Virus record (IMG/VR): IMGVR_UViG_3300045970_000415
Location: 1 to 42,755 of that record
Source of the DNA: a virus
Length of the DNA stretch: 42,755 nucleotides
Direction: 5' to 3' (one strand)
In this document: positions 11,307 to 42,755 of the stretch, piece after piece
Layout: the number at the start of each line of letters is the position of its first letter
How positions within the stretch are numbered: position 1 is the stretch's first letter
The notes under the pieces: generated by a model
What the model was told of the DNA's origin: nothing
The model's database searches: none
The model's input: the letters and a program-made list of their open reading frames with translations, nothing else
Translations under genes and position numbers: made by a program

Positions 11307-11493
11307 ACTGATTCTCCTTCAAAATTCTTATCTCTTCGAATTGTGCCTGAAGCAAATCCGTCAGATCCGCAAGCGCAATTGCAAGCCGCGTGATCTTTGC
11401 CTTCGCTGACAACAGCTCGCCTATTAATTCAAACTGTTCATTCCTGTCCAGTGGCACACCATATTTCTTATGGTTTGTAATGACGGTACTCAT
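11275..11493 (-). CDS. Small coiled-coil protein
   Basis: [44 protein letters not shown]... The ATG at 11493 forms an ATGA overlap with the stop of the upstream GT gene (11490-11492). Confidence 0.5.
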   Translation of the reverse strand: MSTVITNHKKYGVPLDRNEQFELIGELLSAKAKITRLAIALADLTDLLQAQFEEIRILKENQYGRVNDRNKE

Positions 11494-12395
11494 GCACGCA
11501 TTTTCAACCACGCGCTCTTGTCCGCTGGCCACGAAGGGATAGGCGCGAAGCGTTTGATCAACCACTCGAAATCATGGATGCGTCCTTCCCATCTGTCGTT
11601 CAGCCAGTGATCAATTGAAAAACGATTGCCATTGTCACGCTCCGATCTTCCTACTCGCGAATATGTTTGACCTATTACTTCCTTGTATGCGTTTCGATAT
11701 GGTTCGCCCTTCCACAAGTGCGCATACCAGGTCTTCTTATTGACCATCACCTGCCCCCCGCCAAGCCATGCCTTCAATCCTAATTCTTGCGCCTCACCGA
11801 TGAATGAGCCATAACCAGTTTCATCCATCTGAACGATACGCCGCTGAAAGAATTCCTTTGGCATAAACCAGCACGAACCTTGGAACGTCATTGTCTCGTC
11901 AATTAATCTATTAATTCGGCTGATGATGCGCTCGTCCCATGTCCACCCGTGCAGACCAAGTTCATTGCTCTTGCCTTTCATCTTTGCTCGGTACGGCCAG
12001 GACAAATATTCATAATCCACAAAGGCTCGATGCCTTCGCACGCTCCACGTTTCCGCATCGAGTGCGTATCTGCGCGGAATAACGATCCAATCCTTATCGC
12101 AATCGGCTTTCAGCGTTTCATCATAGCCCTCTGCGATCAGGCAGTGCGCGTCGATCTTCATGATGTATTCGCCTTTGGATACTGCGATCCCAGCGTTGAT
12201 GGAGGCCCGCATTCCGCGGCGCTCCCTATGGACAATGATCAAACGCGGGTCATCTGGCAATGCTTCGATCGGCCAATACCCGTCAAGAATAACAATGACT
12301 TCGATCTCGCCCGTTGCTTTTGCCAATAGATCACAGACAGTTTGCTTTAAATAAAGTTCATTTCGTGCAGGGATGATTACAGATACTTTTTTCAT
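11490..12395 (-). CDS. GT-A fold glycosyltransferase (GT2-like, with DxH and Gal/GalNAc-T-like motifs), paralogue of 14695..15615
   Basis: [10 protein letters not shown]...IEVIVILDG...KIDAHC...[33 protein letters not shown] overlap with the repeat-protein stop at 12392-12395. Confidence 0.75.
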
Positions 12396-14695
12396 GGGAA
12401 TAAGTTTATTGAAGATACGTTAACTCCGTTTATTTTGACGATCACAAGCAATCCAGCGCTCGGGCTTGCGGATGGGCTGGTGCTTGGACTAACCGAAGGG
12501 CTTACACTCGGACTCGCCGAAGGGCTCGCGCTTTCCGACACACTCGGAGATAAAGAAGCCGATGGTGACGCAGACTGTGAAGCCGAAGGGCTTACGCTAG
12601 GCGATGCGCTCGTGCTTGCCGACGGACTGATAGATGCAGAGGGTGATACGGAAGGTGAAACACTTTCACTTTTGGAAGGGCTTGCACTGGCTGACGCTGA
12701 TGGGCTAATGGATGCGGAAGGCGAAGCACTCGGAGAAACGCTTGGGCTTTTCGACGGACTTGCGCTTGCTGATGCCGAAGGACTTATAGACGCACTCGGA
12801 CTTACCGAAGGGCTTGCGCTTGCAGATGCTGATGGGCTAATGGATGCGGAAGGTGAAGCACTCGGAGAAACACTTGGGCTTTTCGACGGACTTGCGCTTG
12901 CTGATGCCGAAGGACTTATAGACGCACTCGGACTTACCGAAGGGCTTGCACTGGCTGACGCTGATGGGCTAATGGATGCGGAAGGTGAAGCACTCGGAGA
13001 AACACTTGGGCTTTTCGACGGACTTGCGCTTGCTGATGCCGAAGGACTTATAGACGCACTCGGACTTACCGAAGGGCTTGCGCTGGCTGACGTAGATGGA
13101 CTGATAGACGCAGAGGGTGAGGCACTCGAAGACGCGCTTGGACTTTGAGACGGGCTTGCGCTAGCACTCGCTGACGGAGATATTGATGCTGACGGAGACG
13201 CTGACGGCGACGCTGATTGCGAAGCACTTGGCGACGCTGATGGACTTGCGCTTGCACTTGCTGATGGCGAAGCTGAACCGCCGCCAAATGGATTGAGCGA
13301 AACCAAAAAGGCGTGCTTGGTTGTAGATGTCGCCGAAGCGGTAAAGTTTACGACCCCCGTTGCGCCTGAGCCACTCCAATTGCAGTGCGCGAAAGTCCTG
13401 CTGAACGTGGATATCGAACCACTATCAGAGTCTTCTACCCAATCATTGTCCTGAGTGGCAGGCTTGGTGAACGTTCTTACCGTTGTTGAGTAAACCGCGC
13501 CAAGGGCGATAAGGTTGCGGAGTGTCGCGCCTGTCGTGACCGCCGCCGCCTGAACAGTGGTATTGCTTGTGACGTAATTCGTGTTTGAACTGGCTTCAAT
13601 TGGTGATGTAAGGCTGTAACCGTAACGATAAGTCGCAATGGTTATCGCAATCTTAGTTGTGCCACTCGTTCCCCATGTATAAGTGGCGCCTTCACTCGCC
13701 CCTGCCAGTTTCCAATATATGTGATATTTGTCGGATGTCGATGTTTTACTCTGTAAAAGCGTCCAACCCGTAGGTACTGAGTTGACCGTGAAGCTAGACA
13801 CGTCACGGATACCTACGAATGCAAACATCAAATCGTTTTGCGCGGTGTTTGTCGGTTTATTACACGCCAAAGAAGTCGCCGCGCCATTATCGGCGGCCGC
13901 TGTATTGACCAGAATTGTGTCACTACCTGCGCTTGGAGAGGCAGATGGGGATGCGCTTGGGCTTACTGATGGACTTGCTGACGCACTAGCTGAAGGTGAA
14001 ACCGACGGACTTGCCGACGCCGACGCGCTCGGACTAGCACTACCAACCGCTGGCATCAAAGCGCATTGCCATATCACATAAGATAAATAGGTTGACGTTG
14101 TAATACTTGAAATCCCTGTCGCCCCTGTTGACATTCCTAACTTATCTAAGGTTATGCCAAGTTGTTGTCCAGTTGCGCTTTGAACGTTGCTATACCCATT
14201 ATTGTTGCTTGTATATGTGGTGGTGGTGGGCTGATAATCGTCACCCATCAATAGCAACGCGCACGCGCCAGAAGTAGCGATGGTTATTGATGGTGCGCGG
14301 GCGTTTCCTGCTATCGCCGTCCCTTCTACTAAACCAGTCGCCCTATTTCCCGAAGCTGGCGCAACATCCCAAATATTGGCCGTATCCACGCCTCGGTATT
14401 GGCGGATAACGATTGACCATCTTCCTGAACTCCCTTGCGTAAAATTATAGGTCGCAGGTTCGCTTCCGCCCGCTACCCGCTGGAATATATAAGCGGTAGC
14501 ACTGTCTGGATTTGCCGCGCTGTCAGCAGTCGTGAACGGAGTAGAACCATTATTATCAGTGGAAGTTTGCCCTGCTCCATTGCCATTGATAAACGCAATC
14601 AGAACATCTCCTGATGCTATGGTCAGTCCATGAGTGATGGAAACATTTCCAGACGCTCCGCTCGCCGCCGCCGTTCCGATTAATGATATAGCCAT
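12392..14695 (-). CDS. Mucin-like Ser/Pro/Ala tandem-repeat protein with two paralogous globular domains (candidate glycosylated virion fibre or decoration)
   Basis: 767 aa: globular domain 1, a ~40-aa SPSA linker, globular domain 2, about 280 aa of (S-P-S-A/V/I/K/Q)n, then a 20-aa tail [20 protein letters not shown]. The start overlaps the upstream stop (TAATG at 14695). Confidence 0.8.
12699..13094. repeat. 132-bp tandem repeat, 3 near-identical copies (44-aa units) inside the repeat protein gene
   Basis: Units start at 12699, 12831 and 12963 (gatgggctaatggatgcggaagg...). Copies 2 and 3 are identical for about 119 bp by eye. Shorter degenerate SPSA-coding repeats extend over about 12455-13290 and 13925-14045. 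Confidence 0.85.
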
Positions 14696-15615
14696 TATTT
14701 ACTCCACTCTGGAACAGGAAAAAATTTTTCAATTAACCATTCAAGAGGGTGAATAGCCTTATCCCATTTATTGTTCAGCCATAAGTCTTGACTATACTTC
14801 CGCGCGCGCTCTATGCCAGGGTTCGGATACGGAAATCCAAAGTCACCGCCTTGCGTGCGGAATAGATGGGCATACCAAGTTGATCGGTCAATAATAACTC
14901 TGCCACCTGATAACCACGTCTTACAGGCTACCTCTGTGCCTTGCTGACCCCATGAGCCGTGTCTTTCGTCGCACAGATCCAACTCAAAATATTTATTTCG
15001 TGTCACCATAAAGCAAGAACCTTGCAGACTCATGCTCTCCACAAGATTTCCTTTTTGCTTCTTTTGCAGTTCACCCCAATACTGGAAGTGAAGTTGTTTG
15101 TCAAAACGATATGCTGACGACTTGGGGCTTGGCTTGGCTATCCAAACCACATCCATAGTCGTGGGTAGTCCGCAGTCCAGGCACGGACCAGATACACCTT
15201 GGTATCTCCGATGCCCTTTTTCACATACCCAATCAAAGGCGTGTAAGTTGCGCATGAGTGGTGAGACAGTCCAATCGTCTTGCACGTTCGCCATCAACTT
15301 CACATCGAAGCCTTGGTCAAAACTGCAATGAGCATCCACCTTCATCAAATACTTCGCATCCGATACTCGCGCCGCCTCATTCGTAGCCGCACGTTGCCCG
15401 ATACTCTGTGCGTGATGGATCAATGTCAAACGCGGATGGTCTGGTATAGGTATTTCAGGCCACGCGCCGTCTAGTACTGCTATGACTTCTGTATCGCCTT
15501 CACTGTGCGCAAATATGTCTTCAATCGTTCGATTGAGGAACATTTCATTTCGCGCAGGAATGAGAATACTTAGGTCATACATCTTTGCCAAAATCCGTCT
15601 GTGATTACTTTCCAA
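14695..15615 (-). CDS. GT-A fold glycosyltransferase (GT2-like, with DxH and Gal/GalNAc-T-like motifs)
   Basis: [10 protein letters not shown]...TEVIAVLDG...KVDAHC...[29 protein letters not shown]. The start may be the internal MYDLS (15582). Confidence 0.75.
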
Positions 15616-16412
15616 TTGAAACGCTTGCGCGCTTCGGTCGCGTCTACTGTCTTAGGTGGTGACTTGAATAACCTTATTAAACTTTCTGTAACTATCTTGG
15701 GTGAACCTTCGGGAATGAAGTCAGCAAGGCCATCAAACCACTGCCGGTAGTTCGGGGTGTCGAATACAATCGGTCGGACGCCACAGAATAAAGCTTCAAC
15801 CGCAGGTATTTCGAAACCGTCTTTTCTGCGCAATGCCGACACGAATGTACATTGATTAAATATATCACGCAGGGTTTCGTCGGTGTTCACAGGAAATGAT
15901 GTAACAATTGGATTGGCGTACCCTTTCCCAATGTGCGCAACCACTCCTCCGACTGAGTATGCCGACAAATATACTTCACCAAGGCATTCATTTCGATACG
16001 TGGTTCCATTTGTGCAAACAATATATTTCTTTTCGCGCTTCAAATCAATAAAGACATCTGGGTTAGATGCAAGCGGGGCGTGGTACAGATTGACCAACTT
16101 GAACGGACTGGGGATTTTACTTTTCAAGTCGTAATAGCTCCACACTACCTTCGCGCCACTCCATATGGCTAACCAATCATCGGCGCTTGGGTTTCGACTG
16201 CTCTCCAAGACGTACTGAATGACCGCGTATTTCTTGCCTGCCTTGATAATTTCCTTCGCCTGTTGCGTGACGTGCTGATTGCGCCCGATCACATGCAAAA
16301 TGATCAGATCGGCTTCAGCGGCATCATGCACACGGGTTATATTTTCTGGCAGATTCGCGTCAAGCGCATCAATCACGCGCTGAATGCCATAGCTTTGTAA
16401 GCTGATATCCAT
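15570..16412 (-). CDS. GT-B-like glycosyltransferase (GT1/GT4-like C-terminal motif)
   Basis: RRKDGFEIPAVEALFCGVRPIV resembles the (E/D)x7E region of retaining GT4 enzymes. ATG at 16412 (MDISLQ), with an upstream GTG at 16445 possible. Confidence 0.55.
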   Translation of the reverse strand: MDISLQSYGIQRVIDALDANLPENITRVHDAAEADLIILHVIGRNQHVTQQAKEIIKAGKKYAVIQYVLESSRNPSADDWLAIWSGAKVVWSYYDLKSKIPSPFKLVNLYHAPLASNPDVFIDLKREKKYIVCTNGTTYRNECLGEVYLSAYSVGGVVAHIGKGYANPIVTSFPVNTDETLRDIFNQCTFVSALRRKDGFEIPAVEALFCGVRPIVFDTPNYRQWFDGLADFIPEGSPKIVTESLIRLFKSPPKTVDATEARKRFNWKVITDGFWQRCMT

Positions 16413-16420
16413 GAATATTT

Positions 16421-17050
16421 TCACTTGACCGCTTTCTTCACCCACATAAAGGAACGGTTTCTATCCCGTATCAACCCAGGCGTTTTGGCGCGTGTGCCAA
16501 GCAGAAACCACGGCTTGATCATATAAGCATCCGTGAAGCCGTTGACTACCGATGTGACATGCATATTCTGCGATGGTCTGCGGAGCTTCTTGTAATCATG
16601 CCCAGAAACGATTCCGCCCACACGAACCTTCTTGCTCCAATAATACAGGTCTTGCGCCGCGTGCAGCCAATCATGGTTGCCGTCAATGTACACAAAGTCA
16701 AGGCTTTCATCTGGTATCTGTGCCGCCGCTTCAATGCTCGTCATGTGCAGCACGTGCGTGTTATATCCAGCCAGCCTGCGGAGCGCCTCCGCTTTTGCAT
16801 CTTCCATCCCGCCAATATAGAAATCATCGTAATTCTTCCAGACATCTACAAGGTACAGTGTGACTGTCGGGTTAGCCTTGCAGATAGCCTCGGAATATAT
16901 TCCTTTGAACACGCCAACCTCCGCGCCGATCTTGAATCCAAGTTCTGCGAATAAATTGACGAGTTGAAATCTCCCGTAATTCGGTATCTCGATCGGTGAA
17001 CGCCTGCTCGAAAGATTGAACTTATTCAAAATAAAATCAAGTGTATCCAT
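16421..17050 (-). CDS. Class I SAM-dependent methyltransferase (sugar O-methyltransferase-like)
   Basis: GAEVGVFKGIYS (motif I), FVYIDGNHDW, GGIVSGHDY. Confidence 0.65.
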   Translation of the reverse strand: MDTLDFILNKFNLSSRRSPIEIPNYGRFQLVNLFAELGFKIGAEVGVFKGIYSEAICKANPTVTLYLVDVWKNYDDFYIGGMEDAKAEALRRLAGYNTHVLHMTSIEAAAQIPDESLDFVYIDGNHDWLHAAQDLYYWSKKVRVGGIVSGHDYKKLRRPSQNMHVTSVVNGFTDAYMIKPWFLLGTRAKTPGLIRDRNRSFMWVKKAVK

Positions 17051-31246: not shown

Positions 31247-32809
31247 CTATCCTTGATAACTTCTCACTTCTTTTTGCGGCCTGCGCAGCATCGTCAACAA
31301 CTTGCTATACGCGCCGCTCGCCGCATCCACCTGATCGTCATACTTGCCGCGGTCGAATGCCACACACTCATCAATGAACGCCTCATTCCATGCGCCCTTC
31401 AGCAGAAAGATCATCGCGCCCTGGAACGCACTTTCCATCGGCTCCGAACGTGTCGGTTTATCACCTGACACAGTTTCGAACTTCGCAGAAAATCCAATCA
31501 GCAAACGGTTCGTCGCTTCCGCCGAATCCTTCCCAGCTGAGCCAGGGTCTTGTTGATGCCAGGTCGCAACCTTGCCGTACTTCTCGCGGTCATCCTCGGC
31601 GGTTTTCTTCATCTTCATATCGCGTTCGTACGAACTCCACTGCCCGCGCACAACATCCAGAATATAGAAAAATCCATCCGAACCATAAGCCATCAACACA
31701 CCAGCCGTATAATCGCCATGGGTTGAATTTGCCTTGTCCCACAGCCGCACTATGAACCTGATCGTCACACCCTCGGGTATCATCGTCACGGTCCTGAACC
31801 ACTCACGCCTGTATTTCTGACCGCTCTTCGGAAATGGGCTTTGTTGATAAAGTGCCTCGAAGTCATACACGCCCAGGCTTGCCCTTGTCCCGATCAACCA
31901 ATCTGTCCCGTAGGCGCTCGGCCAAAGCGGTTGTCCAGCCTTGCGTCCCAGCGCATCCTTAAGCGGCAAAAACACACCATCGCGCATTTTCTTTTGTTGC
32001 TCGTCCACATCCACTGGGTATCCATCCAGCGCCAGTGCAGGCAGGGATATTATTTCCCATTGATCCGCCAGCGGGTCCGTCAGCATTCGTTGCATCAATC
32101 TGCCTGAAAAATCGTCAGGGTGCCAGCGTGTGTGAAAAACAACCACCGCCGCGTTCGGGCGCAAACGGGTGCGCGCTGAACTGCGATACCAATCATCCAC
32201 CAGGTCACGCCGTCCCTCGCTCTCTGCCTCTTCCCTGTTTTTGAAAGGATCATCCACGATCAACAAATGCGCAGGCAAACCAGTGATACCGCCGCCCACG
32301 CCCGCCGCCTTCACTCCGCCTCGGTAGGGCCGTGCCAGGTCCCAGCTTTCCGTCGCCCGGCTATCGCTCGAAAGTTCCACAGGATGGATCTTCGCGGACT
32401 TGCTCCCAAATAACGCCTGGTACTCACTCGATAAAACCGTATCGCGGATAAAACGGCTGTGCCTCGTCGCAAGGTCCACACCGTAGGATGTCAAAATAAT
32501 TCGGCTGTCAGGCAGCAATCCCAACAACCACGCTGGAAAGTTTCGGCTCGCCAGCTGGCTCTTCCCATGCTGGGGCGGCATCATGATCATCAAACGTCCA
32601 ATGCCCTTGGCTCCGCCGCTCGCAATATACAAAGCCACCTGCTGCAATTTCGCCGCCAGGAGTTGAATATGTGCGGGCGTCTCATAACGTGGATCAATGT
32701 ACTGGCAGAACGTCAAAAAATTCTGCCGCGCATTCTGACGCAGCGCGCGCTCTTCCTTCGCCTGCCGCGGCGTCATATCCACTTGCGGGTTTATCAACGC
32801 AGGCAACAT
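31247..32809 (-). CDS. terL: Terminase large subunit
   Basis: MMPPQHGKS (Walker A), LLIVDDPFK (Walker B), and a C-terminal nuclease region with FYILDV...DDQVDA. Confidence 0.9.
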   Translation of the reverse strand: MLPALINPQVDMTPRQAKEERALRQNARQNFLTFCQYIDPRYETPAHIQLLAAKLQQVALYIASGGAKGIGRLMIMMPPQHGKSQLASRNFPAWLLGLLPDSRIILTSYGVDLATRHSRFIRDTVLSSEYQALFGSKSAKIHPVELSSDSRATESWDLARPYRGGVKAAGVGGGITGLPAHLLIVDDPFKNREEAESEGRRDLVDDWYRSSARTRLRPNAAVVVFHTRWHPDDFSGRLMQRMLTDPLADQWEIISLPALALDGYPVDVDEQQKKMRDGVFLPLKDALGRKAGQPLWPSAYGTDWLIGTRASLGVYDFEALYQQSPFPKSGQKYRREWFRTVTMIPEGVTIRFIVRLWDKANSTHGDYTAGVLMAYGSDGFFYILDVVRGQWSSYERDMKMKKTAEDDREKYGKVATWHQQDPGSAGKDSAEATNRLLIGFSAKFETVSGDKPTRSEPMESAFQGAMIFLLKGAWNEAFIDECVAFDRGKYDDQVDAASGAYSKLLTMLRRPQKEVRSYQG

Positions 32810-33510
32810 TATTCTTCTTCCTCACCACTCTCCCCTAACTGCAAAGCATTTGGGGGAGACGCCCGAAGGGCAGAGGGGTCCAGATCTACCTTCAACTCCT
32901 GCGCGCCCCGCTCCAGCATCATCAACGTATCTTCATCCGTATCCGCTGCACTTCCGTCCGCCTTGCGCTTCAACACAGCCGCCAACTGCGTCAACGGCAC
33001 ATAATCGCCGCTCATCTCTAAAAATAATTTCAAATGATTGAAGAACTTATAGTCACTGCCTGCGTTCTTCATCCCATCGATCAACCCCTTGAATGCATCC
33101 GCGCGGTATTCCCACAGCTCCGAAGATTGCAGCACTGCGATCATCGTATTGATCGCCGCGTTCTTCTTGCGCCACGTACTGATTGCCCGATCGCTGGTCA
33201 ACTGTAAATATTGCGTTGCCAATTCCTGTTGTGTCTTTGGCATCCGTCCGTCTTGCGGCATCGATGCCCAGGCAATATAAACTGCCTGTCTCCACGGCCA
33301 TCCGCCCCCCATCAACAGTTCAAAACGCTCGAACCATGCTGGCTGTTTCTCATTGCCCTTCAAAAGAATCAAAGCTGAATGACCCGCAACGGACCGCATC
33401 CGCGCTTCCTCAATGGAAACGCCGTCGCACTCGACCTCAGGTAATTCCAGGTCAAGCGCGATCTGCTTATATTCATCGTGCAATTCAAAGTTCGGTTTTG
33501 TAACAGGCAT
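32809..33510 (-). CDS. Terminase small subunit-like DNA-binding protein (paralogue of 36494..37111)
   Basis: 233 aa, TAATG-coupled to terL. Conserved block GGGWPWRQAVYIAWASMP...LTSDRAISTWRKKN. Confidence 0.65.
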   Translation of the reverse strand: MPVTKPNFELHDEYKQIALDLELPEVECDGVSIEEARMRSVAGHSALILLKGNEKQPAWFERFELLMGGGWPWRQAVYIAWASMPQDGRMPKTQQELATQYLQLTSDRAISTWRKKNAAINTMIAVLQSSELWEYRADAFKGLIDGMKNAGSDYKFFNHLKLFLEMSGDYVPLTQLAAVLKRKADGSAADTDEDTLMMLERGAQELKVDLDPSALRASPPNALQLGESGEEEE

Positions 33511-33518
33511 AATCTCTT

Positions 33519-34004
33519 CTACTTCTTACCTAGTTGTTCGGGCAGTTGACCCGTCTGCTTTTTTATGTCTTCAATATCCGTATGATGACTCGCCAGCATC
33601 TCTTCGATTTTCTTCTGATTTTCAGAAAGCATTTCAATTTGCTTTTGCTTTTCTTGGCTTTCGATCCTTTGTATCGTCAACTCTCTCTGCAGCAAAACCT
33701 TCTCTTCATTCGAAATACTCAGTTTCGCCTTAAGCTCTTCCCGTGCCTTGAGCAAATCGTTGTTCTGCTTCATCATCGAATTGGTCTGCTCTGCGCGCAA
33801 GTTCTGGTTTTCGATATTTAATCGTTCGGTTTCTTCTACAAGTTTCCGCACTTCCGCCTTGTCTTTTTCCGAATCACTCAGCAGTTTTTTTGTTTCGGCC
33901 ATATTCTTTTTCTTGACGGCCAGCAAACCAAACAACAGACCCAAAAAGGTGAATATTCCGCCTTCCAAAACTTTTACAATAATTTCATACAGCATGGCAT
34001 TCAT
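33519..34004 (-). CDS. N-terminally membrane-anchored coiled-coil protein
   Basis: GGIFTFLGLLFGLLAV followed by about 120 aa of heptad-like charged sequence. The ATG shares a base with the HD-GYP stop (TGATG). Confidence 0.6.
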   Translation of the reverse strand: MNAMLYEIIVKVLEGGIFTFLGLLFGLLAVKKKNMAETKKLLSDSEKDKAEVRKLVEETERLNIENQNLRAEQTNSMMKQNNDLLKAREELKAKLSISNEEKVLLQRELTIQRIESQEKQKQIEMLSENQKKIEEMLASHHTDIEDIKKQTGQLPEQLGKK

Positions 34005-34570
34005 CACATCACCATCTGCCTGAACGTTGCATAGATCGCCGGATCAAATGAAGTGCCGTTTTCTTTATCCATTTCTAAAAGCGCCTCATCTTTTGTATAA
34101 GCTTCACGGTATGGTCGCTCGCTGGTCATCGCATCGAAACAATCCACCACCCGCAAAATGCGCGCGCCCAAAGGGATCACGTCGCCTTTCAATCCGTCTG
34201 GATACCCTGACCCGTCCCAGTTCTCATGGTGGTGACGGACATTCCTCTCGATCGCAGGATCGAAACGAAACTTCGCGATCAACCTCTCTCCCATATCTGC
34301 ATGGCTGCGGATCATGTTGGTTTCCGAAGTGCTCAACTTAACTTTGTTCAGCACATGCTCGGCGATCAAGATCTTCCCAACATCATGTAACTGCGCGCTG
34401 TAGGTCAACAGCTCAATATCCTCTGGCGCCAACTTCAACTCCAGGGCTAATCCAATGGCTAATTTCGCTGCACGCTTTTCATGTCCATCCTCATAAGGAT
34501 CGCGCAGCTGCATGATCACCTCCGAAAACTCGATGATGATATGAATGCGATAGCGATCCTCATTGTCCAT
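34004..34570 (-). CDS. Standalone HD-GYP domain phosphodiesterase (cyclic-dinucleotide hydrolase family)
   Basis: HEKRAAKLAIGLA...LHDVGKILI...HHHENWDGSGYPDGLKGDVIPLGARILRVVDCFDAMTSERPYR. 188 aa with no sensor or receiver domain. Confidence 0.85.
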   Translation of the reverse strand: MDNEDRYRIHIIIEFSEVIMQLRDPYEDGHEKRAAKLAIGLALELKLAPEDIELLTYSAQLHDVGKILIAEHVLNKVKLSTSETNMIRSHADMGERLIAKFRFDPAIERNVRHHHENWDGSGYPDGLKGDVIPLGARILRVVDCFDAMTSERPYREAYTKDEALLEMDKENGTSFDPAIYATFRQMVM

Positions 34571-34588: not shown

Positions 34589-34927
34589 TTATTTCTTCAA
34601 AAGTCTGACTGCGACATTGTCAAGAACTTTCTTCAGCAAGGCGTTATAGATCAAAGTTGCCAATGCCACCACAGGCCCAAGCAAAGTCAGCAATGCTGAA
34701 ATATAGGTGATCAACGCGGGCACAAATGCGGCCAGATCAACGAATGGAGGAAACGCAGGGAACGCGGGGGCATTCCATGCATATGCCAGCAAACCTGAGA
34801 TCACATACACCGCAACTGTCAACCACCCGCGGTTGATCTTGACCTTCGCCTTCACCAGCAAATTGACCGCATAAACGATCACCGTCGCTAATACTGCCAG
34901 CGTGTATAGTTGAATTTCAGTAAGCAT
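34589..34927 (-). CDS. Multi-pass small membrane protein, first gene of the late operon (holin-like by position)
   Basis: Start MLTEIQLY at 34927, preceded by AAAAAAGGAGACACG. About 3-4 hydrophobic helices and a basic C-terminus. Confidence 0.55.
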   Translation of the reverse strand: MLTEIQLYTLAVLATVIVYAVNLLVKAKVKINRGWLTVAVYVISGLLAYAWNAPAFPAFPPFVDLAAFVPALITYISALLTLLGPVVALATLIYNALLKKVLDNVAVRLLKK

Positions 34928-34948: not shown

Positions 34949-34986
34949 AAAAAAGCGCTGTCGTGACATTACGTCACGACAGCGCT
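34949..34986 (-). terminator. Strong Rho-independent terminator 13 nt upstream of the late-operon RBS
   Basis: Minus strand GCGCTGTCGTGAC-GTAAT-GTCACGACAGCGC (13-14 bp perfect stem) followed by TTTTTTG. Confidence 0.75.
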
Positions 34987-35042
34987 CATCTTGTCATAGG
35001 CGGCCTCGCCAATTTGCTAGGCCTGCAGGTAAATTTAGTTGT
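34949..35042 (-). ncRNA. Predicted ~95-nt terminated leader transcript (lambda 6S-RNA-like) or small RNA
   Basis: The interval between the predicted TSS of the 35076 promoter and the terminator has no ORF longer than 3 codons. It contains an internal GGCC...GGCC hairpin. Confidence 0.4.
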
Positions 35043-35048
35043 AGGAAA

Positions 35049-35076
35049 ATTTTAACATTAACTGAGTCAATGTCAA
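35049..35076 (-). promoter_or_regulatory. Near-consensus sigma70-type promoter with an extended -10 (candidate late promoter)
   Basis: Minus strand TTGACA (35076-35071), 16-nt spacer ending in TGT, TAAAAT (35054-35049). AT-rich UP-like tract upstream. Confidence 0.65.
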
Positions 35077-35092
35077 GAGTTTAATTAAAATG

Positions 35093-35129
35093 AAAAGCGC
35101 CGGGGTGAGGGGGGCACCTCGGCGCTTTT
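35093..35129. terminator. Bidirectional terminator-like hairpin after the methyltransferase operon
   Basis: AAAA-GCGCCGGGGTG-AGGGGGG-CACCTCGGCGC-TTTT (one G-T or A-C position in the stem). Confidence 0.55.
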
Positions 35130-35231
35130 CAAGTTCAATTATAGAATCTTTTCGCTAAAAGTCAACTATCAATTTGATCTCGATCTCCTTTATTTGATAT
35201 GCCATTAGTAGGCCGTAGGAGTGCCGGGAAG

Positions 35232-36470
35232 TCAAGGCAATTTTTCTGGCAGTAATCCCGTCATTAGATGCCATCTTTCAATCGTCACCGCCGCATAAAT
35301 CGGATCAAGTTCAATTGCCCTGCATTGTCTCTGCAGTTGCTCACACATGATCAACGTTGTTCCGCTTCCAACGAATGGATCAAGCACCACATCACCGGGC
35401 AAACTTGAATTCATCAACGATCGTTCCACCAACAGTAATGGCTTCATGGTTGGATGTTCTTCCGATCGTTTCGGCCTGTCGATTTGCCACACATCGGATT
35501 GCTTGCGGTCCATCACTTCTCTAATCCTTGCCGCATCACTTTTCCATCCGTACCATAGCGGCTCGAACTGGGTGTGATAATCCTTCCTTGAAAGCACAAG
35601 TTGATCCTTCATCCATACGATCGTGCTCGACCAGTGGAATCCTTTATCGCGCAGCGCCTTGTCGATCACTGGCCACTCCTGCGCGCTCATGACCAAATAA
35701 ATCAATGCACCTGGCTCACACGCATCCCAGATACTCTTCACAGAAGCTCGCATAAATTCAGGAAATTTATCTCCCAAATTATCGTTCTTCATGGTTCGCT
35801 TCTTATATCCTTGTGCGTTATCTTCTTCGATGCGGCCACCGTAATCAACATTCCAGGGTGGATCTGTCCAGCAAATGGAAGCCTTCTCATTCTCCATCAA
35901 TGCTGAAATTACATTTGCATCTGTGCAATCGCCAATTGCCAAACGATGATTTCCCAACTTCCAAATCTGCCCTTCTTCAACTTTCCATTTTCCCGCAAGC
36001 TCATCCGCGTGATTTATCAATTCAATAACATCCGCTTTTTCTTCTTGAAGCTCTGGCTCCAAGCTAACAAGCAAACTTTGTAACTCCTTATCCAAAAAAC
36101 CAAGCGAATCAAAATCCATCCCTGCAGCTGCATCCTCGGCGATCTGTTCTGCATCCCACGCCAGGTCTAGCTCTGCAACACGGTTATCCAAATACGCCAG
36201 GCGTCTTGCCTCACCCGAAGGATCATTTAAGTCCAGGTCTTCTCTTTGCACAACAACAAGTTCATCGCGCTTCGTGGAAATCACACGCACCTTCAAGCCC
36301 GCCTTCTGTGCTGCAGCCAGGGTTTTATTCCCTGCAATAATCTGTCCGTTCTTATCACTAAGAATGGATCTTCCCGCTCCAAGTTCCGTCACAGATTGCT
36401 CTAGTAATTCCTTGCCGCGCTCTGTGCCTTTGTTTGCATTATGCTGATCGAATTTCAAATCATTGTCCAT
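35232..36470 (-). CDS. ParB-like nuclease domain fused to a DNA methyltransferase (beta-class N6A/N4C type, DPPW)
   Basis: N-terminal ParB-N-like segment (GRSILSDKNGQIIAGNKTLAAAQKAG). TDPPWNVDYGG (motif IV) and VVLDPFVGSGTT (motif I). ATG at 36470 (MDNDLKF) is preceded by GGAG. Confidence 0.8.
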   Translation of the reverse strand: MDNDLKFDQHNANKGTERGKELLEQSVTELGAGRSILSDKNGQIIAGNKTLAAAQKAGLKVRVISTKRDELVVVQREDLDLNDPSGEARRLAYLDNRVAELDLAWDAEQIAEDAAAGMDFDSLGFLDKELQSLLVSLEPELQEEKADVIELINHADELAGKWKVEEGQIWKLGNHRLAIGDCTDANVISALMENEKASICWTDPPWNVDYGGRIEEDNAQGYKKRTMKNDNLGDKFPEFMRASVKSIWDACEPGALIYLVMSAQEWPVIDKALRDKGFHWSSTIVWMKDQLVLSRKDYHTQFEPLWYGWKSDAARIREVMDRKQSDVWQIDRPKRSEEHPTMKPLLLVERSLMNSSLPGDVVLDPFVGSGTTLIMCEQLQRQCRAIELDPIYAAVTIERWHLMTGLLPEKLP

Positions 36471-36493: not shown

Positions 36494-37111
36494 TTATTGC
36501 CCGTCATCCTTCACCTCGCTCTCCAATGCTTTGACCAGGTCATCCAGTTCCGCATCCGTCTTCACGCCCGCGCTACCTCTTGCTGTGAGCGCAGCCAATA
36601 ACTTATGTGTGGGCATGTAATCCCCCATCAACTCCAAAGCCAGCTTGCGATCGTTGTGACTCTTGTATTCAGGTTTCACAGCCACCGCCACAAGTGCTGT
36701 ATAGATCTCGGCTCGATGCTTGAACAACGGACCTGATTGCATCATCCTCATCATCTCATCCACAGCAGGGTTTTTCTTGCGCCAGGTATTGATTGCTCGA
36801 TCACTCGTCAATCCCAGATGATTCCGCGCCAGGTCATCCTGTCTCTTTGGTTCTCTACTCCCCTTCGGTGTAGATGCCCAGGCAATATATGCTGCCACTC
36901 GCCACGGCCATCCTCCCCTGCATAGCTCAAGATAATCATCCAACCAACGCGGCGATCCGATCTTTCCCACCAATCCATCTAACCCTTTACGCGCCACCTG
37001 CTCACGCAATCTCATTTCATCAATGTTGATCACTCCCGGAGATGACGAAACTTCAACTTCAGGAACATCTAACTCTAAAGGCAGCTGATAACTAAACTTC
37101 GGTAACGGCAT
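36494..37111 (-). CDS. Second TerS-like DNA-binding protein (paralogue of 32809..33510)
   Basis: GGWPWRVAAYIAWASTP...LTSDRAINTWRKKN...GDYMPTHKLLAAL aligns colinearly with the TerS-like protein. By eye, roughly half the residues are identical across the core. Confidence 0.6.
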   Translation of the reverse strand: MPLPKFSYQLPLELDVPEVEVSSSPGVINIDEMRLREQVARKGLDGLVGKIGSPRWLDDYLELCRGGWPWRVAAYIAWASTPKGSREPKRQDDLARNHLGLTSDRAINTWRKKNPAVDEMMRMMQSGPLFKHRAEIYTALVAVAVKPEYKSHNDRKLALELMGDYMPTHKLLAALTARGSAGVKTDAELDDLVKALESEVKDDGQ

Positions 37112-39319: not shown

Positions 39320-39589
39320 TTATTCTTCATCCATGACCATATTTGCCAACAGACTTTCCAACGCCGCCTGTGACCGCTCCGCGTCCTCATCACCCAGCGC
39401 CACCGTCGAAGCCACACCCAGCTCGCCATTCACCGCCGCAATGATCAACTCCCAACACATCCTCGTCCGCTGGCCCGCAGGTTGACTCTCATACCAGGCC
39501 AAAGCCTTATCCACCCGTGCGCTCCCATTGGGATACACATACGGATCAATATGCAAATGCCTGCGCGGACCTTTCTTCGGTCTTGCCAT
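39320..39589 (-). CDS. Small protein downstream of the actin-like gene (ParR-like adaptor by position)
   Basis: 89 aa with a basic N-terminus MARPKKGPRRHLHIDPYVY and an acidic C-terminus. TAATG-coupled to the ParM-like stop at 39589. Confidence 0.4.
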   Translation of the reverse strand: MARPKKGPRRHLHIDPYVYPNGSARVDKALAWYESQPAGQRTRMCWELIIAAVNGELGVASTVALGDEDAERSQAALESLLANMVMDEE

Positions 39590-40587
39590 TATTTCTTCGC
39601 CTTATCCAGCTTATACAAACCGTGTGCAATGCTCATTACAGGCTCATCCGCAATCACGCCTTTGCCGCGCAGCTTCAACTGATCGCCCAACAACACTGCA
39701 CCACCGCCCACAACCAGCACCGCCGCAAAACGCTCAAGTGCGTCCTTCCAAATCCGCTCGATTGCGCCGTTGACCTCGCTTGCCCAGATTGGCATCTTCT
39801 CACGATGTTTCAAATTGCCATTGCGCAATTTCATATCCAATTCACCGAGCGAATACGCGCCCTTCGGGTTCAGCAATTCCAACAATCGGCGCACACCCAG
39901 CTTCTCTCCGCCAGTGAATTTCTCAGTCGCCACCTGGTTCTCGATCACCATGAATTCCAACGTATTGAAACCAACAGAGATCACGCCCACTTCCTCCGTC
40001 AACGCCTTGCTTCGTGATGGAATATATTTCTTCTCATCATCCATCACATAATCAAACAAGGCCCCCACAGGCTGCGAAGTCAGGCGCACCCGTTCCACCA
40101 TCACACTATATTCAACATCGTCCGCCCGCCATGAATGCGGACCCGCCAGCCATGCCCGCATCGCCTTGCGGTAATCCTTCATATCATCACCCATAGTCTG
40201 CAAAGGCAGCCCCACCATCAGCGAAAGCGGAGTATCTTCCAGCTTGATATTTTTTCCGCTTCCAACTGACGTCTGGAATAATCCATGCTCTTGTATATAA
40301 CGGCTCCACGATCCATAAACCAATGCTCGCATTTCCGGACTTCCGATCAAACGGTCGAAATCCAAATTCTCGATCGGGCGTCCATAGTTATGCGCCCGCG
40401 CGCCCACATAGAATTCGCCATCATTTGTTGACACCAATAGCGGACGTTTATCATTCTTCAACCCAATCATTGCACCCATGTGTCCGCTTCCATTCACAGC
40501 CACCTGGCTCAACATATCCAGCCCGCCTTCATCAGACCAGACTTTGATCGCGCCCATTCCCGCATCCAAACCCATTGAATTTGTCAT
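39589..40587 (-). CDS. Actin-like ATPase (ParM/StbA/Alp family)
   Basis: GLDAGMGAIKV (phosphate-1), VISVGFNTLEF (phosphate-2-like), VLVVGGGAVLLG (adenosine motif). 332 aa, with AAGGAG upstream. Confidence 0.65.
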   Translation of the reverse strand: MTNSMGLDAGMGAIKVWSDEGGLDMLSQVAVNGSGHMGAMIGLKNDKRPLLVSTNDGEFYVGARAHNYGRPIENLDFDRLIGSPEMRALVYGSWSRYIQEHGLFQTSVGSGKNIKLEDTPLSLMVGLPLQTMGDDMKDYRKAMRAWLAGPHSWRADDVEYSVMVERVRLTSQPVGALFDYVMDDEKKYIPSRSKALTEEVGVISVGFNTLEFMVIENQVATEKFTGGEKLGVRRLLELLNPKGAYSLGELDMKLRNGNLKHREKMPIWASEVNGAIERIWKDALERFAAVLVVGGGAVLLGDQLKLRGKGVIADEPVMSIAHGLYKLDKAKK

Positions 40588-40694
40588 TCGAATCTCCTTT
40601 TTGATTTATGGTTGGTTACTACTACTACTTCACTGTCTATCTCTCACCGCATAATTCACTTCAAACAAACATCCGTCAAAAACGAAGTAGTGAA

Positions 40695-40739
40695 TAAATA
40701 GCGGTTAAATATTTCACGCCTGTAAATAGCGGTTAAATA
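40695..40739. repeat. Two 17-bp direct repeats upstream of the actin-like gene (parC-like centromere/operator candidate)
   Basis: TAAATAGCGGTTAAATA at 40695-40711 and 40723-40739. TTCAC-containing inverted repeats (CACTACTTC / GAAGTAGTA) lie at about 40626-40694. Confidence 0.6.
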
Positions 40740-41945
40740 CTATGTGCCTAATGCCTCTTTCAGCAATCGTATCCGTTCATAGAATGCTGCGCCGCCAGCA
40801 CTGCCCCAAATATTATTCACGATCGCCGTCAGGCTCAACCCTTCATCCTTCAGCGTCCGCGCTCTCTGCAAAAGATCATCATTCAAAGGTTTCGCGCTGG
40901 TCTCTTGTGCGTTTTCCTCGTTCAACTTCAATACCAATTGCACCGTCTCTTCACTCGGCTCTGGATACTCAACGCGAAATGATTGGAACTCCGTCACCCG
41001 CGCTTTGAATACGATCAACCCACGCCCCTGAATTTTCGGCAGGCTTTCCGCGCCATTCATCCCCAACACCATCTGGCTTGCATTCCACGAAGGCACAGGA
41101 AAACAAATGCGCGTCACCAAATTTGTCTTTACCAACAGCGCCGCAGCTTCGGGTCGGTTCGTCGCCAGGATCGGATAAAAACCCGTATCCCGCTCCCGTT
41201 CAACGATCTCCACTAATGATGCTTTCTCCTCATCGTTTGTAAGTGCGGCCTCATCCACAAACAACGCGATCGGCTTGATCGGTTCATTTGGATTTGCCTC
41301 GTTATAGGAAACAATATTTGCGTGCCCGCTCGAAAGCAGGATCCGTCTGCGCTTCATCGCCTCTTCGCTCAAACGTCGCAGCGTATCAGCCAAATTCATA
41401 ACCATGTGGAAATGTTCCGCGCCCATATAACGCGAGAATTCAACGCCGCGCTTTCCATCGTGTGCATACACGTCAGTTTTTCCGCCCGCCAGCAACGCCT
41501 GTATCCATCCGTGCAATAAGCCCGTCTTTCCCAATCCGCGCGAACCTGATACCAAGAACGAATCTCCCTCCAACAGTGAGATCCACATCTCGCCGCGCGC
41601 GCTCATTCCCATCGGCATCTCGAAAGGCGATTTCTGTTTGCTCAGATCCAGATCCGCCACACTCAGATCACCCAGCATCATTGGGATATCGTATCCAACT
41701 TGCAGGAACATCCCGCGCGAGTTTGTCCGTTTTACGATCCTTCCCTGTAATCGCGTAGAAAGTCCGTGCGCGAATTCATCGTTCAGCTTCCGCAGATCCA
41801 CAGCATTGGGATCGAAGATCACCACCAAACGATCGGGGCGTACCCATACATAGAAAGAAACTGCATTCAAGTCCACGCGCGCCCTGCGCTCATCCAACAG
41901 CGTCAGCGTCTTATAAGCCACCTGTTGAGCAAAATTATTTGTCAT
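40740..41945 (-). CDS. FtsK/SpoIIIE-family P-loop ATPase without a membrane domain
   Basis: GSRGLGKTG (Walker A), IALFVDEAAL (Walker B), ILATNRPEAAAL...LVTRICFPVPSWNASQMVLG (FtsK-like motor signature). Confidence 0.7.
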   Translation of the reverse strand: MTNNFAQQVAYKTLTLLDERRARVDLNAVSFYVWVRPDRLVVIFDPNAVDLRKLNDEFAHGLSTRLQGRIVKRTNSRGMFLQVGYDIPMMLGDLSVADLDLSKQKSPFEMPMGMSARGEMWISLLEGDSFLVSGSRGLGKTGLLHGWIQALLAGGKTDVYAHDGKRGVEFSRYMGAEHFHMVMNLADTLRRLSEEAMKRRRILLSSGHANIVSYNEANPNEPIKPIALFVDEAALTNDEEKASLVEIVERERDTGFYPILATNRPEAAALLVKTNLVTRICFPVPSWNASQMVLGMNGAESLPKIQGRGLIVFKARVTEFQSFRVEYPEPSEETVQLVLKLNEENAQETSAKPLNDDLLQRARTLKDEGLSLTAIVNNIWGSAGGAAFYERIRLLKEALGT

Positions 41946-42755
41946 GATTCGCCTCTTTCCAATCGTGTTCCAAGCTCTTCAACGCCTCGCCATCCAACAG
42001 ACCAGTAGGCGGCAGTGTGTCACCATCAACGATCTCAAAAGCATCTTCCCGTTTCTGTGGAGTTGAAAAAACCTCATTGAATGTGCCCGTGCCGTTCGCC
42101 GTTGGACGCACTGGCATTGCCGCCAGTGCCTTGATCGCCTGTTCGCGCCGCGTCACTTCTGATTGTTCCTGCGGCGAGGATATTTGCGGCATAGTATTCG
42201 TTGTCAGATCCAAAACAGGACCAGCCAATAACGAAGGCTTCGTCACGGTCTTATTGTCAAATACAAATACCTGCACCGTTCCATCCTCATCACGGATCTC
42301 ACGAATGCGGCTCTGGTTATAGGCGTACAAGCCCGCCACCGCCGCCAGAAACAACGCAATGATCGTCGGGATCAGCCACTGGATCACATTCGTATCCCGC
42401 GCCTGTTTCAAAGTCAGCGCAGACCGTTCCACTTCTTGCGTAGAGATCACGATCTGGTTATCTACAGCTATTTGAGTCAACGTCGCATGTGGCGGAATGG
42501 CAGTCAGCGTCATTGAAGTAAATGTGGCAGTCGCCAAACTATCAGATGTGGACTGCGCATCAATGCGCGCTTGTTTCGCGTTCGCATCATCCCGAGCCTG
42601 TGTAGCCTGCATTGCCAGAGATGCCTGTGTCGCCTGCGCGTCCATATCCATGCGCGCCTGTGTTGCCCGTGCTTCTATATCCATTCTGGATTGCGTCGCC
42701 TGTGCATCTGCACGCTTTTGTTCAGATGTTGCCGCCGCATCCACGCGCGCCTGTT
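41935..42755 (-). CDS. C-terminal part of the bitopic lipoprotein (the CDS begins at 362 across the circular junction)
   Basis: Q/A/T/D-rich ~11-aa repeats (ATQSRMDIEARATQARMDMDAQATQASLAMQATQARDD), a TM helix VIQWLIPTIIALFLAAVAGLYAY, and a ~130-aa C-terminal domain. It overlaps the FtsK-like start by 11 nt. Confidence 0.75.
   Translation of the reverse strand, partial: QARVDAAATSEQKRADAQATQSRMDIEARATQARMDMDAQATQASLAMQATQARDDANAKQARIDAQSTSDSLATATFTSMTLTAIPPHATLTQIAVDNQIVISTQEVERSALTLKQARDTNVIQWLIPTIIALFLAAVAGLYAYNQSRIREIRDEDGTVQVFVFDNKTVTKPSLLAGPVLDLTTNTMPQISSPQEQSEVTRREQAIKALAAMPVRPTANGTGTFNEVFSTPQKREDAFEIVDGDTLPPTGLLDGEALKSLEHDWKEANHDK
42629..42755. repeat. Terminal direct repeat, copy 2 (identical to 1-127)
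   Basis: Direct comparison of the window ends. Confidence 0.9.

Follow-up and report, generated by a model that had tools for sequence, protein, structure and literature searches.

HD-GYP phosphodiesterases are a known enzyme family that cleaves cyclic di-GMP and sometimes cyclic GMP-AMP in bacteria, and phage-encoded members have been noted before. The protein described here is a predicted stand-alone HD-GYP enzyme of 188 amino acids (aa), encoded in the late operon of a temperate phage represented by IMG/VR record IMGVR_UViG_3300045970_000415 (positions 1 to 42,755, the whole stretch of DNA that we analyzed and call the window). With PA4781 (4R8Z) and PmGH (4MCW), it shares the fold (TM-score 0.84-0.86), the HD, HHExxDGxGYP, and RxY[K/R] motifs, and seven metal ligands; unlike them, it lacks an N-terminal sensor such as a receiver (REC) or GAF domain, has one residue less in its KPG loop, and is encoded by a phage in a late operon, with a membrane coiled-coil protein as its dedicated partner. 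As in the binuclear class that includes PA4781, a tyrosine and hence a nonacidic residue occupies the third-metal position. The absence of a residue like PmGH E185 at this position defines the binuclear class, and HD-GYPs with tyrosine there are generally unable to turn pGpG into GMP, with exceptions (Galperin and Chou, bioRxiv 10.1101/2021.11.05.467447). The RxY[K/R] motif marks guanine recognition, while RxxQ/N is a signature of specificity for cyclic GMP-AMP (cGAMP), yet V-cGAP1 degrades cGAMP with an Rxx(R) motif and PA4781 makes GMP without the glutamate (bioRxiv 10.1101/2021.11.05.467447; Wright et al., bioRxiv 10.1101/600031). The phage enzyme shares an N-terminal loop of the form SPYxxGH or DPYxxGH with V-cGAP3 of Vibrio cholerae, but, compared to V-cGAP1/2/3 and the PmxA-type RxxQ HD-GYPs, it lacks both the tandem pseudo-HD-GYP domain and the RxxQ/N motif.

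The HD-GYP proteins of jumbo phages have been predicted to counter nucleotide-based defenses by degrading cyclic di- or oligonucleotides (Iyer et al. 2021, PMC7824862). Neither a linkage to lysis nor a partner has been described for them, whereas the gene studied here has a fixed position and a coupled gene in a temperate siphovirus of 42.6 kb. Like Acb1 and Apyc1, the phage HD-GYP is a small phage protein of a single domain with phosphodiesterase activity against cyclic nucleotide messengers, an activity that is predicted in the case of the HD-GYP. Acb1 has a 2H phosphoesterase fold and Apyc1 a metallo-beta-lactamase (MBL) fold, both unrelated to HD-GYP, and they differ further in that they neither have a membrane partner nor are associated with a lysis cassette. 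By Foldseek, the window protein has the HD-GYP fold and is not of the Acb1 type.

With regard to gene order, the late operon of phage lambda (pR'-tR', S-R-Rz/Rz1, Nu1-A) is arranged alike, with a promoter, a terminator leader, membrane lysis proteins, and the terminase genes in succession, but no Q-like antiterminator and no endolysin were identified in the genome of the window phage. XhlA and BhlA of Bacillus prophages are likewise small proteins with one transmembrane (TM) segment and a coiled coil that are encoded beside holins; the coiled-coil protein of the window, however, has no significant match to either. We know of no described lysis cassette that has an enzyme for cyclic di-GMP (c-di-GMP) as a known component. 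A literature search for lysis cassettes containing HD-GYP or c-di-GMP phosphodiesterases, or for such enzymes acting against antiphage signaling systems that are based on cyclic oligonucleotides (CBASS), returned nothing specific. What is new is the pair of an HD-GYP enzyme and a membrane coiled-coil protein as a recurrent component of phage lysis cassettes, of which we found no description in the literature searched.

A complete HD-GYP domain without receiver or sensor

The original prediction, made from the DNA letters and their translations, had claimed a complete HD-GYP signature and no receiver or sensor domain for this open reading frame (ORF; coordinates of all major features in Table 1), and both claims hold. 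Residues 19-179 match the Pfam HD-GYP model HD_5 (PF13487) over profile positions 6-170 of 170 (E=5e-36; 124 bits, the cut-off being 27.2 bits), and HD_5 was the only domain that a Pfam scan of the protein returned. All 3 motifs are present, i.e., LHDVGK (with H62-D63), HHHENWDGSGYPDGL (residues 113-127), and VDCFDAMTSERPYR (residues 142-155), and the second of them includes a complete HHExh(D/N)GxGYP motif (H114-H-E-N-W-D-G-S-G-Y-P124, with GYP at residues 122-124). A loss of metal-binding residues on careful alignment had been named as one finding that would refute the prediction, but alignment to PmGH (4mcw) showed all seven His/Asp ligands of the di-metal site to be intact: H30, H62, D63, H90, H114, H115, and D143 correspond to H189, H221, D222, H250, H276, H277, and D305 of PmGH and are invariant or nearly so across the clade (alignments A3 and A4).

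The position of PmGH E185, the third-metal glutamate, is taken by Tyr26 (DPYEDGH aligned to DPETQNH), as it also is by a tyrosine in V-cGAP3, which points to the binuclear class and not to the trinuclear one of PmGH and TM0186. The guanine-recognition motif, the contact to the first guanine, has the canonical RxY[K/R] form (R152-P-Y-R155), and the relatives carry RxxR or RxxH, never RxxQ/N. The KPG loop, the contact to the second guanine, has a clade-specific form: it is N75-K-V-K in this protein and NKP-K in the clade, one residue short of the canonical LKPGKL. With no metal ligand lost, the domain looks competent for catalysis, and from its sequence we predict a binuclear, guanine-recognizing phosphodiesterase.

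Sequence searches of the PDB matched V-cGAP3 (5z7c, the best at E=5e-40), PmGH (4mcw), PA4781 (4r8z), and DvhD. An AlphaFold2 (AF2) model built with 63 homologues (mean predicted local distance difference test score, pLDDT, 96.2; predicted TM-score 0.92) superposed by Foldseek on 4r8z, 4mcw, and 9rbz (PA4781, PmGH, and DvhD) with TM-scores of 0.84-0.87. Searches of PHROGs, NCBIfam, and PADLOC with the HD-GYP protein, its partner, and the small TM protein gave no informative match; the only NCBIfam match of the HD-GYP protein was a partial one, far below cut-off, to a NosR-type response-regulator c-di-GMP phosphodiesterase. By every criterion of sequence and structure that we tried, the protein is a full member of the HD-GYP family.

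One sub-clade of phage proteins (P0014-P0018 in alignment A3) has Ile, Ser, or Val in place of the first His of the HHE pair and keeps everything else, and these proteins may be catalytically altered or receptor-like.

The HD-GYP gene forms a module with a membrane coiled-coil gene

The stop codon of the HD-GYP gene overlaps the start of the next gene (ATGTGATGA), to which it is translationally coupled and which encodes a single-pass membrane protein that we call the partner. Its TM segment (approximately residues 7-31) is followed by KKK, and its AF2 model is one helix spanning residues 2-151 (pLDDT 87); conserved motifs are LNIENQN, EELKAKL, and a C-terminal KKQTGQLP. Together with the positive-inside rule, the KKK stretch predicts an N-out/C-in topology, which would put the long helix into the cytoplasm and hence into the same compartment as the enzyme. 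The partner family is rare, with 10 matches in 5.8e9 proteins, 42 representatives in 1.84e9, and 3 in IMG/VR. We considered and rejected the idea that the partner is an i-spanin, which would have the opposite N-in/C-out orientation and for which a downstream lipobox gene is missing; analogues with a C-terminal TM segment also disfavor it, and Chloroflexota, to which the host very probably belongs (see below), are generally monoderm.

Relatives of the HD-GYP protein at 46-60% identity (189-194 aa) form a group found in metagenomes only. A TM-coiled-coil gene overlaps the HD-GYP gene in 11/11 readable contexts (the window, L001-3, L004, L005, L006, L007-9, L010, L011, L037, L038, and the contig of P0016), and these share the order of small TM protein, HD-GYP, TM-coiled-coil protein, sometimes an SH3-like protein of ~110 aa, and then the small and large terminase subunits (TerS-like and TerL). 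The same gene order at such identities in independent metagenomes is far beyond chance. In L006, the pair is present beside a different head module with a portal-protease fusion, and between the window and L001, L004, and L005 the HD-GYP protein is better conserved (54-58% identity) than TerL (38-39%). The pair is under strong purifying selection, with ratios of nonsynonymous to synonymous substitution rates (dN/dS) between L004 and L005 of 0.057 for HD-GYP and 0.041 for the partner, compared with 0.093 for TerL and 0.168 for TerS. L040 is the nearest relative of the window by its TM protein (83% identity) and its TerS (N-terminus nearly identical), and there the HD-GYP gene is absent and a different TM-coiled-coil gene of 117 aa is in place. 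This swap and the constant co-inheritance elsewhere indicate that HD-GYP and partner are a two-gene module that is exchanged as a unit.

The pairing recurs beyond this group, with stand-alone, REC-fused, and N-terminally extended HD-GYPs. Scanning 2.9 million IMG/VR contigs with an HD-GYP alignment gave 68 loci, and many of the short or REC-fused HD-GYP genes there are immediately followed by an ORF of 100-200 aa with one TM segment and a highly charged, helical remainder; the TM segment lies at the N terminus in L044, L046, L051, L059, L061, L071, L076, and L081 and at the C terminus in L045, L050, L057, L062, L069, L082, and L089. Genes for holin-like, SH3-like, HNH, TerS, or portal proteins are frequently near these pairs. 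By a heuristic definition of our own, an ORF of the TM-coiled-coil type follows 11/62 HD-GYP genes versus 4/542 other genes of the same loci (odds ratio 29, p=5.6e-9). As a control, we looked at a stand-alone HD-GYP gene of a bacterial chromosome, which is followed by a gene for an HD-GYP-GAF-GGDEF protein and has no such partner. The viral structure library BFVD contained a single partial match below E=1e-3. In a rough neighbor-joining tree (without support values), the stand-alone phage HD-GYPs sit on long branches outside the bacterial cluster, and N-terminally extended HD-GYPs form one clade beside the bacterial ones. The N-terminal extension of the L011 HD-GYP looked PAS-like by eye, which Pfam did not confirm.

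Among GenBank phages, tblastn did not reveal any isolated phage in which a close homologue lies in a credible phage setting, and we set aside the matches obtained (unannotated fecal contigs and "Microcystis phage MaAM05") since they have bacterial-type neighborhoods and lack the module. In the latter (L118; MW495066, 30640-39134), a gene annotated as "3'3'-cGAMP-specific phosphodiesterase 3" lies amid trxB, coaD, tRNA-Trp, secE, nusG, and rplK, so that this region looks like bacterial chromosome rather than phage.

Many HD-GYP cassettes carry, after the coiled-coil gene, a gene for a stand-alone SH3-like protein of 108-121 aa (Table 1). These proteins resemble the C-terminal wall-binding regions of sister-phage endolysins and have no catalytic domain; the two that were scanned (L001 and L007) gave no Pfam match.

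Position in the lysis cassette and late transcription

The original prediction had placed the gene between a holin-like and a membrane-anchored coiled-coil gene upstream of the terminase genes, in what it took to be the lysis-cassette position of the late operon. Hydropathy and gene order confirm these neighbors, and comparison with sister prophages that have related TerS and TerL proteins supports the assignment of the position. The conserved coupling to the partner gene, the return of this pair in many phages, the promoter-terminator leader, and the lineage of the host were not part of that prediction. The slot contains a holin-like TM protein, a small TM protein, and an M23 peptidase (6.6e-24) in L014 and a holin-like TM protein, a small TM protein, and a GH25 muramidase (7e-21) in L016. 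L013 and L015 have a holin-like and a TM-coiled-coil protein only, and in L039, L040, and L042 a short TM-coiled-coil gene comes after the holin-like gene and before the terminase genes. Most informative is L061 (TerL 57% identity), where genes for a holin-like protein, a REC-HD-GYP protein (Response_reg 1.5e-9, HD_5 1.5e-34), a coiled-coil protein with N-terminal TM segment, a GH25 endolysin (1.8e-22), TerS, and TerL follow each other in this order. We therefore rejected the idea that the HD-GYP enzyme replaces an endolysin, given that L061 has both in one cassette and that L013, L015, L039, L040, and L042 have neither HD-GYP nor an endolysin in the slot. The L061 cassette instead makes the HD-GYP an additional member of the lysis cassette. 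In the window, no endolysin was found among all ORFs of at least 100 aa with Pfam and/or PHROGs or by tblastn with the lysins of L014 and L016.

The holin-like family has 29 members, each with a TM-coiled-coil gene and the terminase genes directly downstream, and the window protein gave no Pfam or PHROG match. Its start in the ORF list (34969) falls within a terminator hairpin, and the true start is most likely the ATG at 34927, which is preceded by the Shine-Dalgarno sequence AAGGAG.

Upstream of this gene, a candidate late promoter is followed by 2 hairpins, the second of which resembles an intrinsic terminator (Table 1). A comparable promoter is found at the same relative place in L001, L004, L005, L006, L013, L014, L040, and L042, and the hairpin that closes the preceding methyltransferase operon (stop codon at 35232) has equivalents in L004, L006, L013, and L014. 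The 96-nt leader folds with a dG of -40.9 kcal/mol (z=-6.3), and its layout precedes the first late gene in at least 12 related phages (L001, L004, L005, L006, L013-L017, L037, L038, L040, and L042 besides the window) with stems that differ in sequence while their pairing is kept; that of hairpin 1, for example, reads CCCC/GGGG, GACCC/GGGTC, or GCCC/GGGC in relatives. We judged this conservation from single-sequence folds because the hairpin interiors were misaligned in the MAFFT alignment, from which RNAalifold recovered only the base of hairpin 2. A search of Rfam with the leader gave no family. The arrangement can be likened to pR'-tR' of lambda or to a put-type antitermination leader.

The HD-GYP gene is the second of the late operon, separated by an 18-nt spacer from the upstream gene and without a promoter of its own. 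Taken together with the terminator leader, this suggests that the enzyme is expressed only upon late read-through. The conserved promoter-terminator leader also provides a handle on late-gene control in phages of Chloroflexota.

Possible roles of the phage HD-GYP enzyme

We tentatively favor, with somewhat less than even confidence, the reading that the HD-GYP protein is a c-di-GMP phosphodiesterase that would act at the membrane late in infection as an accessory part of the lysis cassette. Late transcription would pass the leader terminator, so that the holin-like protein, the HD-GYP enzyme, and the coiled-coil protein are made together, and the cytoplasmic helix of the partner would most likely tether or position the enzyme at the membrane. 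There, c-di-GMP would be hydrolyzed at a binuclear Fe/Mn site, with linear pGpG as the likely product because the third-metal glutamate is replaced by tyrosine. With less c-di-GMP at the membrane while the cell is being lysed, envelope or matrix functions that depend on this messenger might be switched off, or the lysis module tuned, and the release of progeny would thus be favored.

Several points weigh against this account. We infer the substrate, the product, the interaction with the partner, and the downstream effect alike, and sequence motifs are unreliable guides to HD-GYP specificity, as V-cGAP1 and PA4781 illustrate. With a KPG loop shorter by one residue, the enzyme could prefer an unusual substrate. 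The topology of the partner is predicted from the positive-inside rule, the holin was assigned by its architecture, and the label of a lysis cassette is transferred to the window phage from its sister phages since no endolysin was recognized; the test for recurrence also used our own definition of the partner type. What the comparison does establish is a minimal HD-GYP protein as a fixed and selected component of the lysis block in temperate phages of a major, poorly studied bacterial lineage, and its pairing suggests an undescribed link between second-messenger signaling and phage release. If the enzyme acts on c-di-GMP at lysis, these phages would either interfere with the main lifestyle signal of bacteria as they are released or use it as a timer for their release, and second-messenger signaling would touch the phage life cycle at a new point.

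That the enzyme could be an anti-defense nuclease, which the original prediction had raised with regard to CBASS and cGAMP, seems unlikely to us. It would then destroy 3'3'-cGAMP or other CBASS products, the c-di-GMP of STING-type CBASS, or the cyclic oligoadenylates of type III CRISPR systems and thereby keep abortive infection from being triggered ahead of the burst. A copy without sensor domain is what one would expect of a constitutive nuclease, and with its shorter KPG loop the enzyme could be less strict about the second base. Late structural proteins are a frequent trigger of CBASS, so that late expression does not disqualify such a role. Jumbo-phage HD-GYPs have been predicted to serve in this way (PMC7824862), and V-cGAP3, the best PDB sequence match, is a 3'3'-cGAMP phosphodiesterase; its score is, however, inflated by two matching domains and amounts to 101.7 bits per domain versus 93 for PmGH. 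Beyond this, we found no specific support for an anti-CBASS role, and 3 observations make it less well supported than a function in the lysis block. The guanine motif is the canonical RxYR and not RxxQ/N, with RxxR or RxxH in the relatives; the gene is invariably coupled to that of a lysis-type membrane coiled-coil protein, which known anti-CBASS nucleases or sponges do not need; and the REC-fused versions in the same slot of related phages resemble regulated signaling enzymes rather than constitutive nucleases. PADLOC gave no match, and no paper in the literature searched linked HD-GYP to anti-CBASS activity. If the enzyme degraded immune nucleotides after all, it would add a new fold to the anti-CBASS enzymes.

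A second-messenger-gated lysis clock appears quite unlikely. The coiled-coil protein would be a holin regulator like XhlA or BhlA whose state depends on c-di-GMP, hydrolysis by the HD-GYP would set or trigger the time of lysis, and REC or other sensor domains would modulate this hydrolysis in some phages. The fixed place of several HD-GYP architectures between holin-like and TM-coiled-coil genes in many phages fits such a clock, as do the sensor-fused variants that imply signal input and the sister phages without HD-GYP that retain a TM-coiled-coil gene in the same place. One of these sister proteins weakly resembles the BhlA holin, but this match is sub-threshold (E=0.016) and concerns a different protein than the partner, in which no c-di-GMP-binding motif was recognized, including an RsiG-type motif sought by eye. 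The clock is entirely inferential, and we found no precedent in the literature searched. Its wider form, in which c-di-GMP is a direct input into the lysis decision of a broad set of uncultured phages, here those of Anaerolineae, and in which an HD-GYP enzyme (stand-alone, REC-fused, or otherwise extended) and the coiled-coil protein make up a two-component accessory to the holins through which hydrolysis of the messenger sets or licenses the time of lysis, strikes us as equally doubtful; if true, it would be the first second-messenger-gated phage lysis module.

It is improbable that the gene is mere cargo (a moron) captured from the host that alters c-di-GMP signaling in lysogens, or that has no lytic role, at a permissive insertion hotspot. 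In lambdoid phages, morons classically insert between the late promoter and the terminase genes, and the module is missing from the closest relatives L040 and L013. Capture would be easy given the prevalence of HD-GYP domains in Chloroflexi genomes (bioRxiv 10.1101/2021.11.05.467447). Yet the strong upstream terminator, the 18-nt spacer, and the lack of an own promoter make expression in lysogens unlikely, and the dN/dS of the HD-GYP gene is below that of TerL; this transcriptional setting and the strong constraint speak against a pure cargo role. In addition, the gene is constantly inherited along with one specific partner, also where the head module differs (L006), the stand-alone phage proteins branch outside the bacterial cluster of our rough tree, and the GC content of the gene equals the genome average. 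Finally, a noncatalytic c-di-GMP receptor or protein-interaction module like DvhD or Bd1817 is very improbable for the window copy, since it keeps all seven ligands, HDxGK, HHExxDGxGYP, and RxYR (invariant or nearly so in the clade) while DvhD lacks the HD dyad in the alignment, despite the c-di-GMP receptor domain of DvhD being among the best structural matches (TM-score 0.87), the missing first His of HHE in sub-clade P0014-P0018, and the known action of some HD-GYP domains via protein contacts (bioRxiv 10.1101/2021.11.05.467447).

The phage and its probable host

The window begins and ends with an exact direct repeat of 127 nt (positions 1-127 and 42629-42755), which identifies it as a complete assembly, circular (or terminally redundant), whose true length is 42,628 bp. 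All genes from ~42744 down to 11490 are on the minus strand. The window encodes an HK97-type capsid protein, a lambda-like tail tube, tail chaperones, a tape measure protein, a portal, and TerL, as well as a serine recombinase, a tyrosine recombinase, a helix-turn-helix repressor-like protein, a primase-type replication protein, and a ParB-N6 methyltransferase. Its virion, recombinase, and repressor-like genes make it a temperate siphovirus.

No DNA-level match of the window was found among GenBank phages. A scan of GTDB genomes with the partner protein gave zero matches, and the host was therefore deduced from relatives of TerL in the same genomes: one at 75% identity is found in an Anaerolineales metagenome-assembled genome (MAG), others at 60-63% in Chloroflexota and Anaerolineaceae MAGs (one of them, L014, on a contig of 253 kb), and one at 51% in a Chloroflexi MAG. 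Relatives of the phage are prophages of Anaerolineae, and its host is thus very probably a member of Anaerolineae, filamentous Chloroflexota.

Other genes and features

Table 1. Features of the late operon of the window phage, followed by SH3-like proteins encoded in related loci (positions within the locus named).
Feature	Position	Strand	Basis and details
Terminator-like hairpin closing the upstream methyltransferase operon	35091..35131	-	dG -25.5 kcal/mol, then T-run
Candidate late promoter, sigma70-like	35049..35076	-	TTGACA, 16 nt with TG, TAAAAT; 11/12 matches
Leader hairpin 1	35000..35026	-	GGCC/GGCC stem, then invariant GATGAGCGC; single-sequence folds, alignment A5
Leader hairpin 2, intrinsic-terminator-like	34953..34987	-	16-bp G+C-rich stem, T-run; directly upstream of the first late Shine-Dalgarno sequence
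Holin-like multi-pass membrane protein, first late gene	34589..34927	-	112 aa; hydropathy; 3-4 hydrophobic segments, charged C-terminal tail
Predicted stand-alone HD-GYP phosphodiesterase	34004..34570	-	ATG-to-stop ORF, 188 aa; Pfam HD_5, AF2, Foldseek
Partner, single-pass membrane-anchored coiled-coil protein	33519..34004/34007	-	161-162 aa; hydropathy, AF2, conserved context
TerS-like protein	32809..33510	-	233 aa; conserved position; stop overlaps TerL start
Large terminase TerL	31247..32809	-	Pfam Terminase_6N/6C; PHROG 38, E=5e-98
SH3-like protein, L001	11049-11381		
SH3-like protein, L004	9722-10051		
SH3-like protein, L005	5546-5872		
SH3-like protein, L007	680-1039		
SH3-like protein, L045	5027-5383		
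SH3-like protein, L082	3410-3766		
SH3-like protein, L089	6046-6411		

The portal gene directly follows TerL. The TerS-like protein, which gave no Pfam or PHROG match, has a paralogue encoded at 36494..37111 (minus strand) with 41-48% identity, and a 53-nt DNA repeat is shared between positions 33256 and 36866. One copy adjoins TerL, and the other is located upstream of the ParB-methyltransferase; L001, L014, and L015 keep this pair, which suggests that the second copy may act in regulation rather than in packaging. Upstream of that second copy, the segment 37423-38503 (minus strand) encodes a fragment of a DNA polymerase beta-like nucleotidyltransferase (a weak match to the thumb domain) and a DUF4326 protein.

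Beside the replication genes (39589-41945, minus strand), we found an actin-like ALP segregation protein and an FtsK-like ATPase (PADLOC mad8/SspH-like, E=9e-15). With these and two recombinases, the prophage may be maintained in the manner of a plasmid.

A block at 11490-17050 (minus strand) encodes a tail-fiber-like protein of 767 aa with 132-nt tandem repeats (12529-13188) that translate into Ser/Pro/Ala-rich units. It is flanked by genes for two GT2 glycosyltransferases, a GT1-like protein, and a methyltransferase, and the block may be a module for glycosylation of the virion or the host surface.

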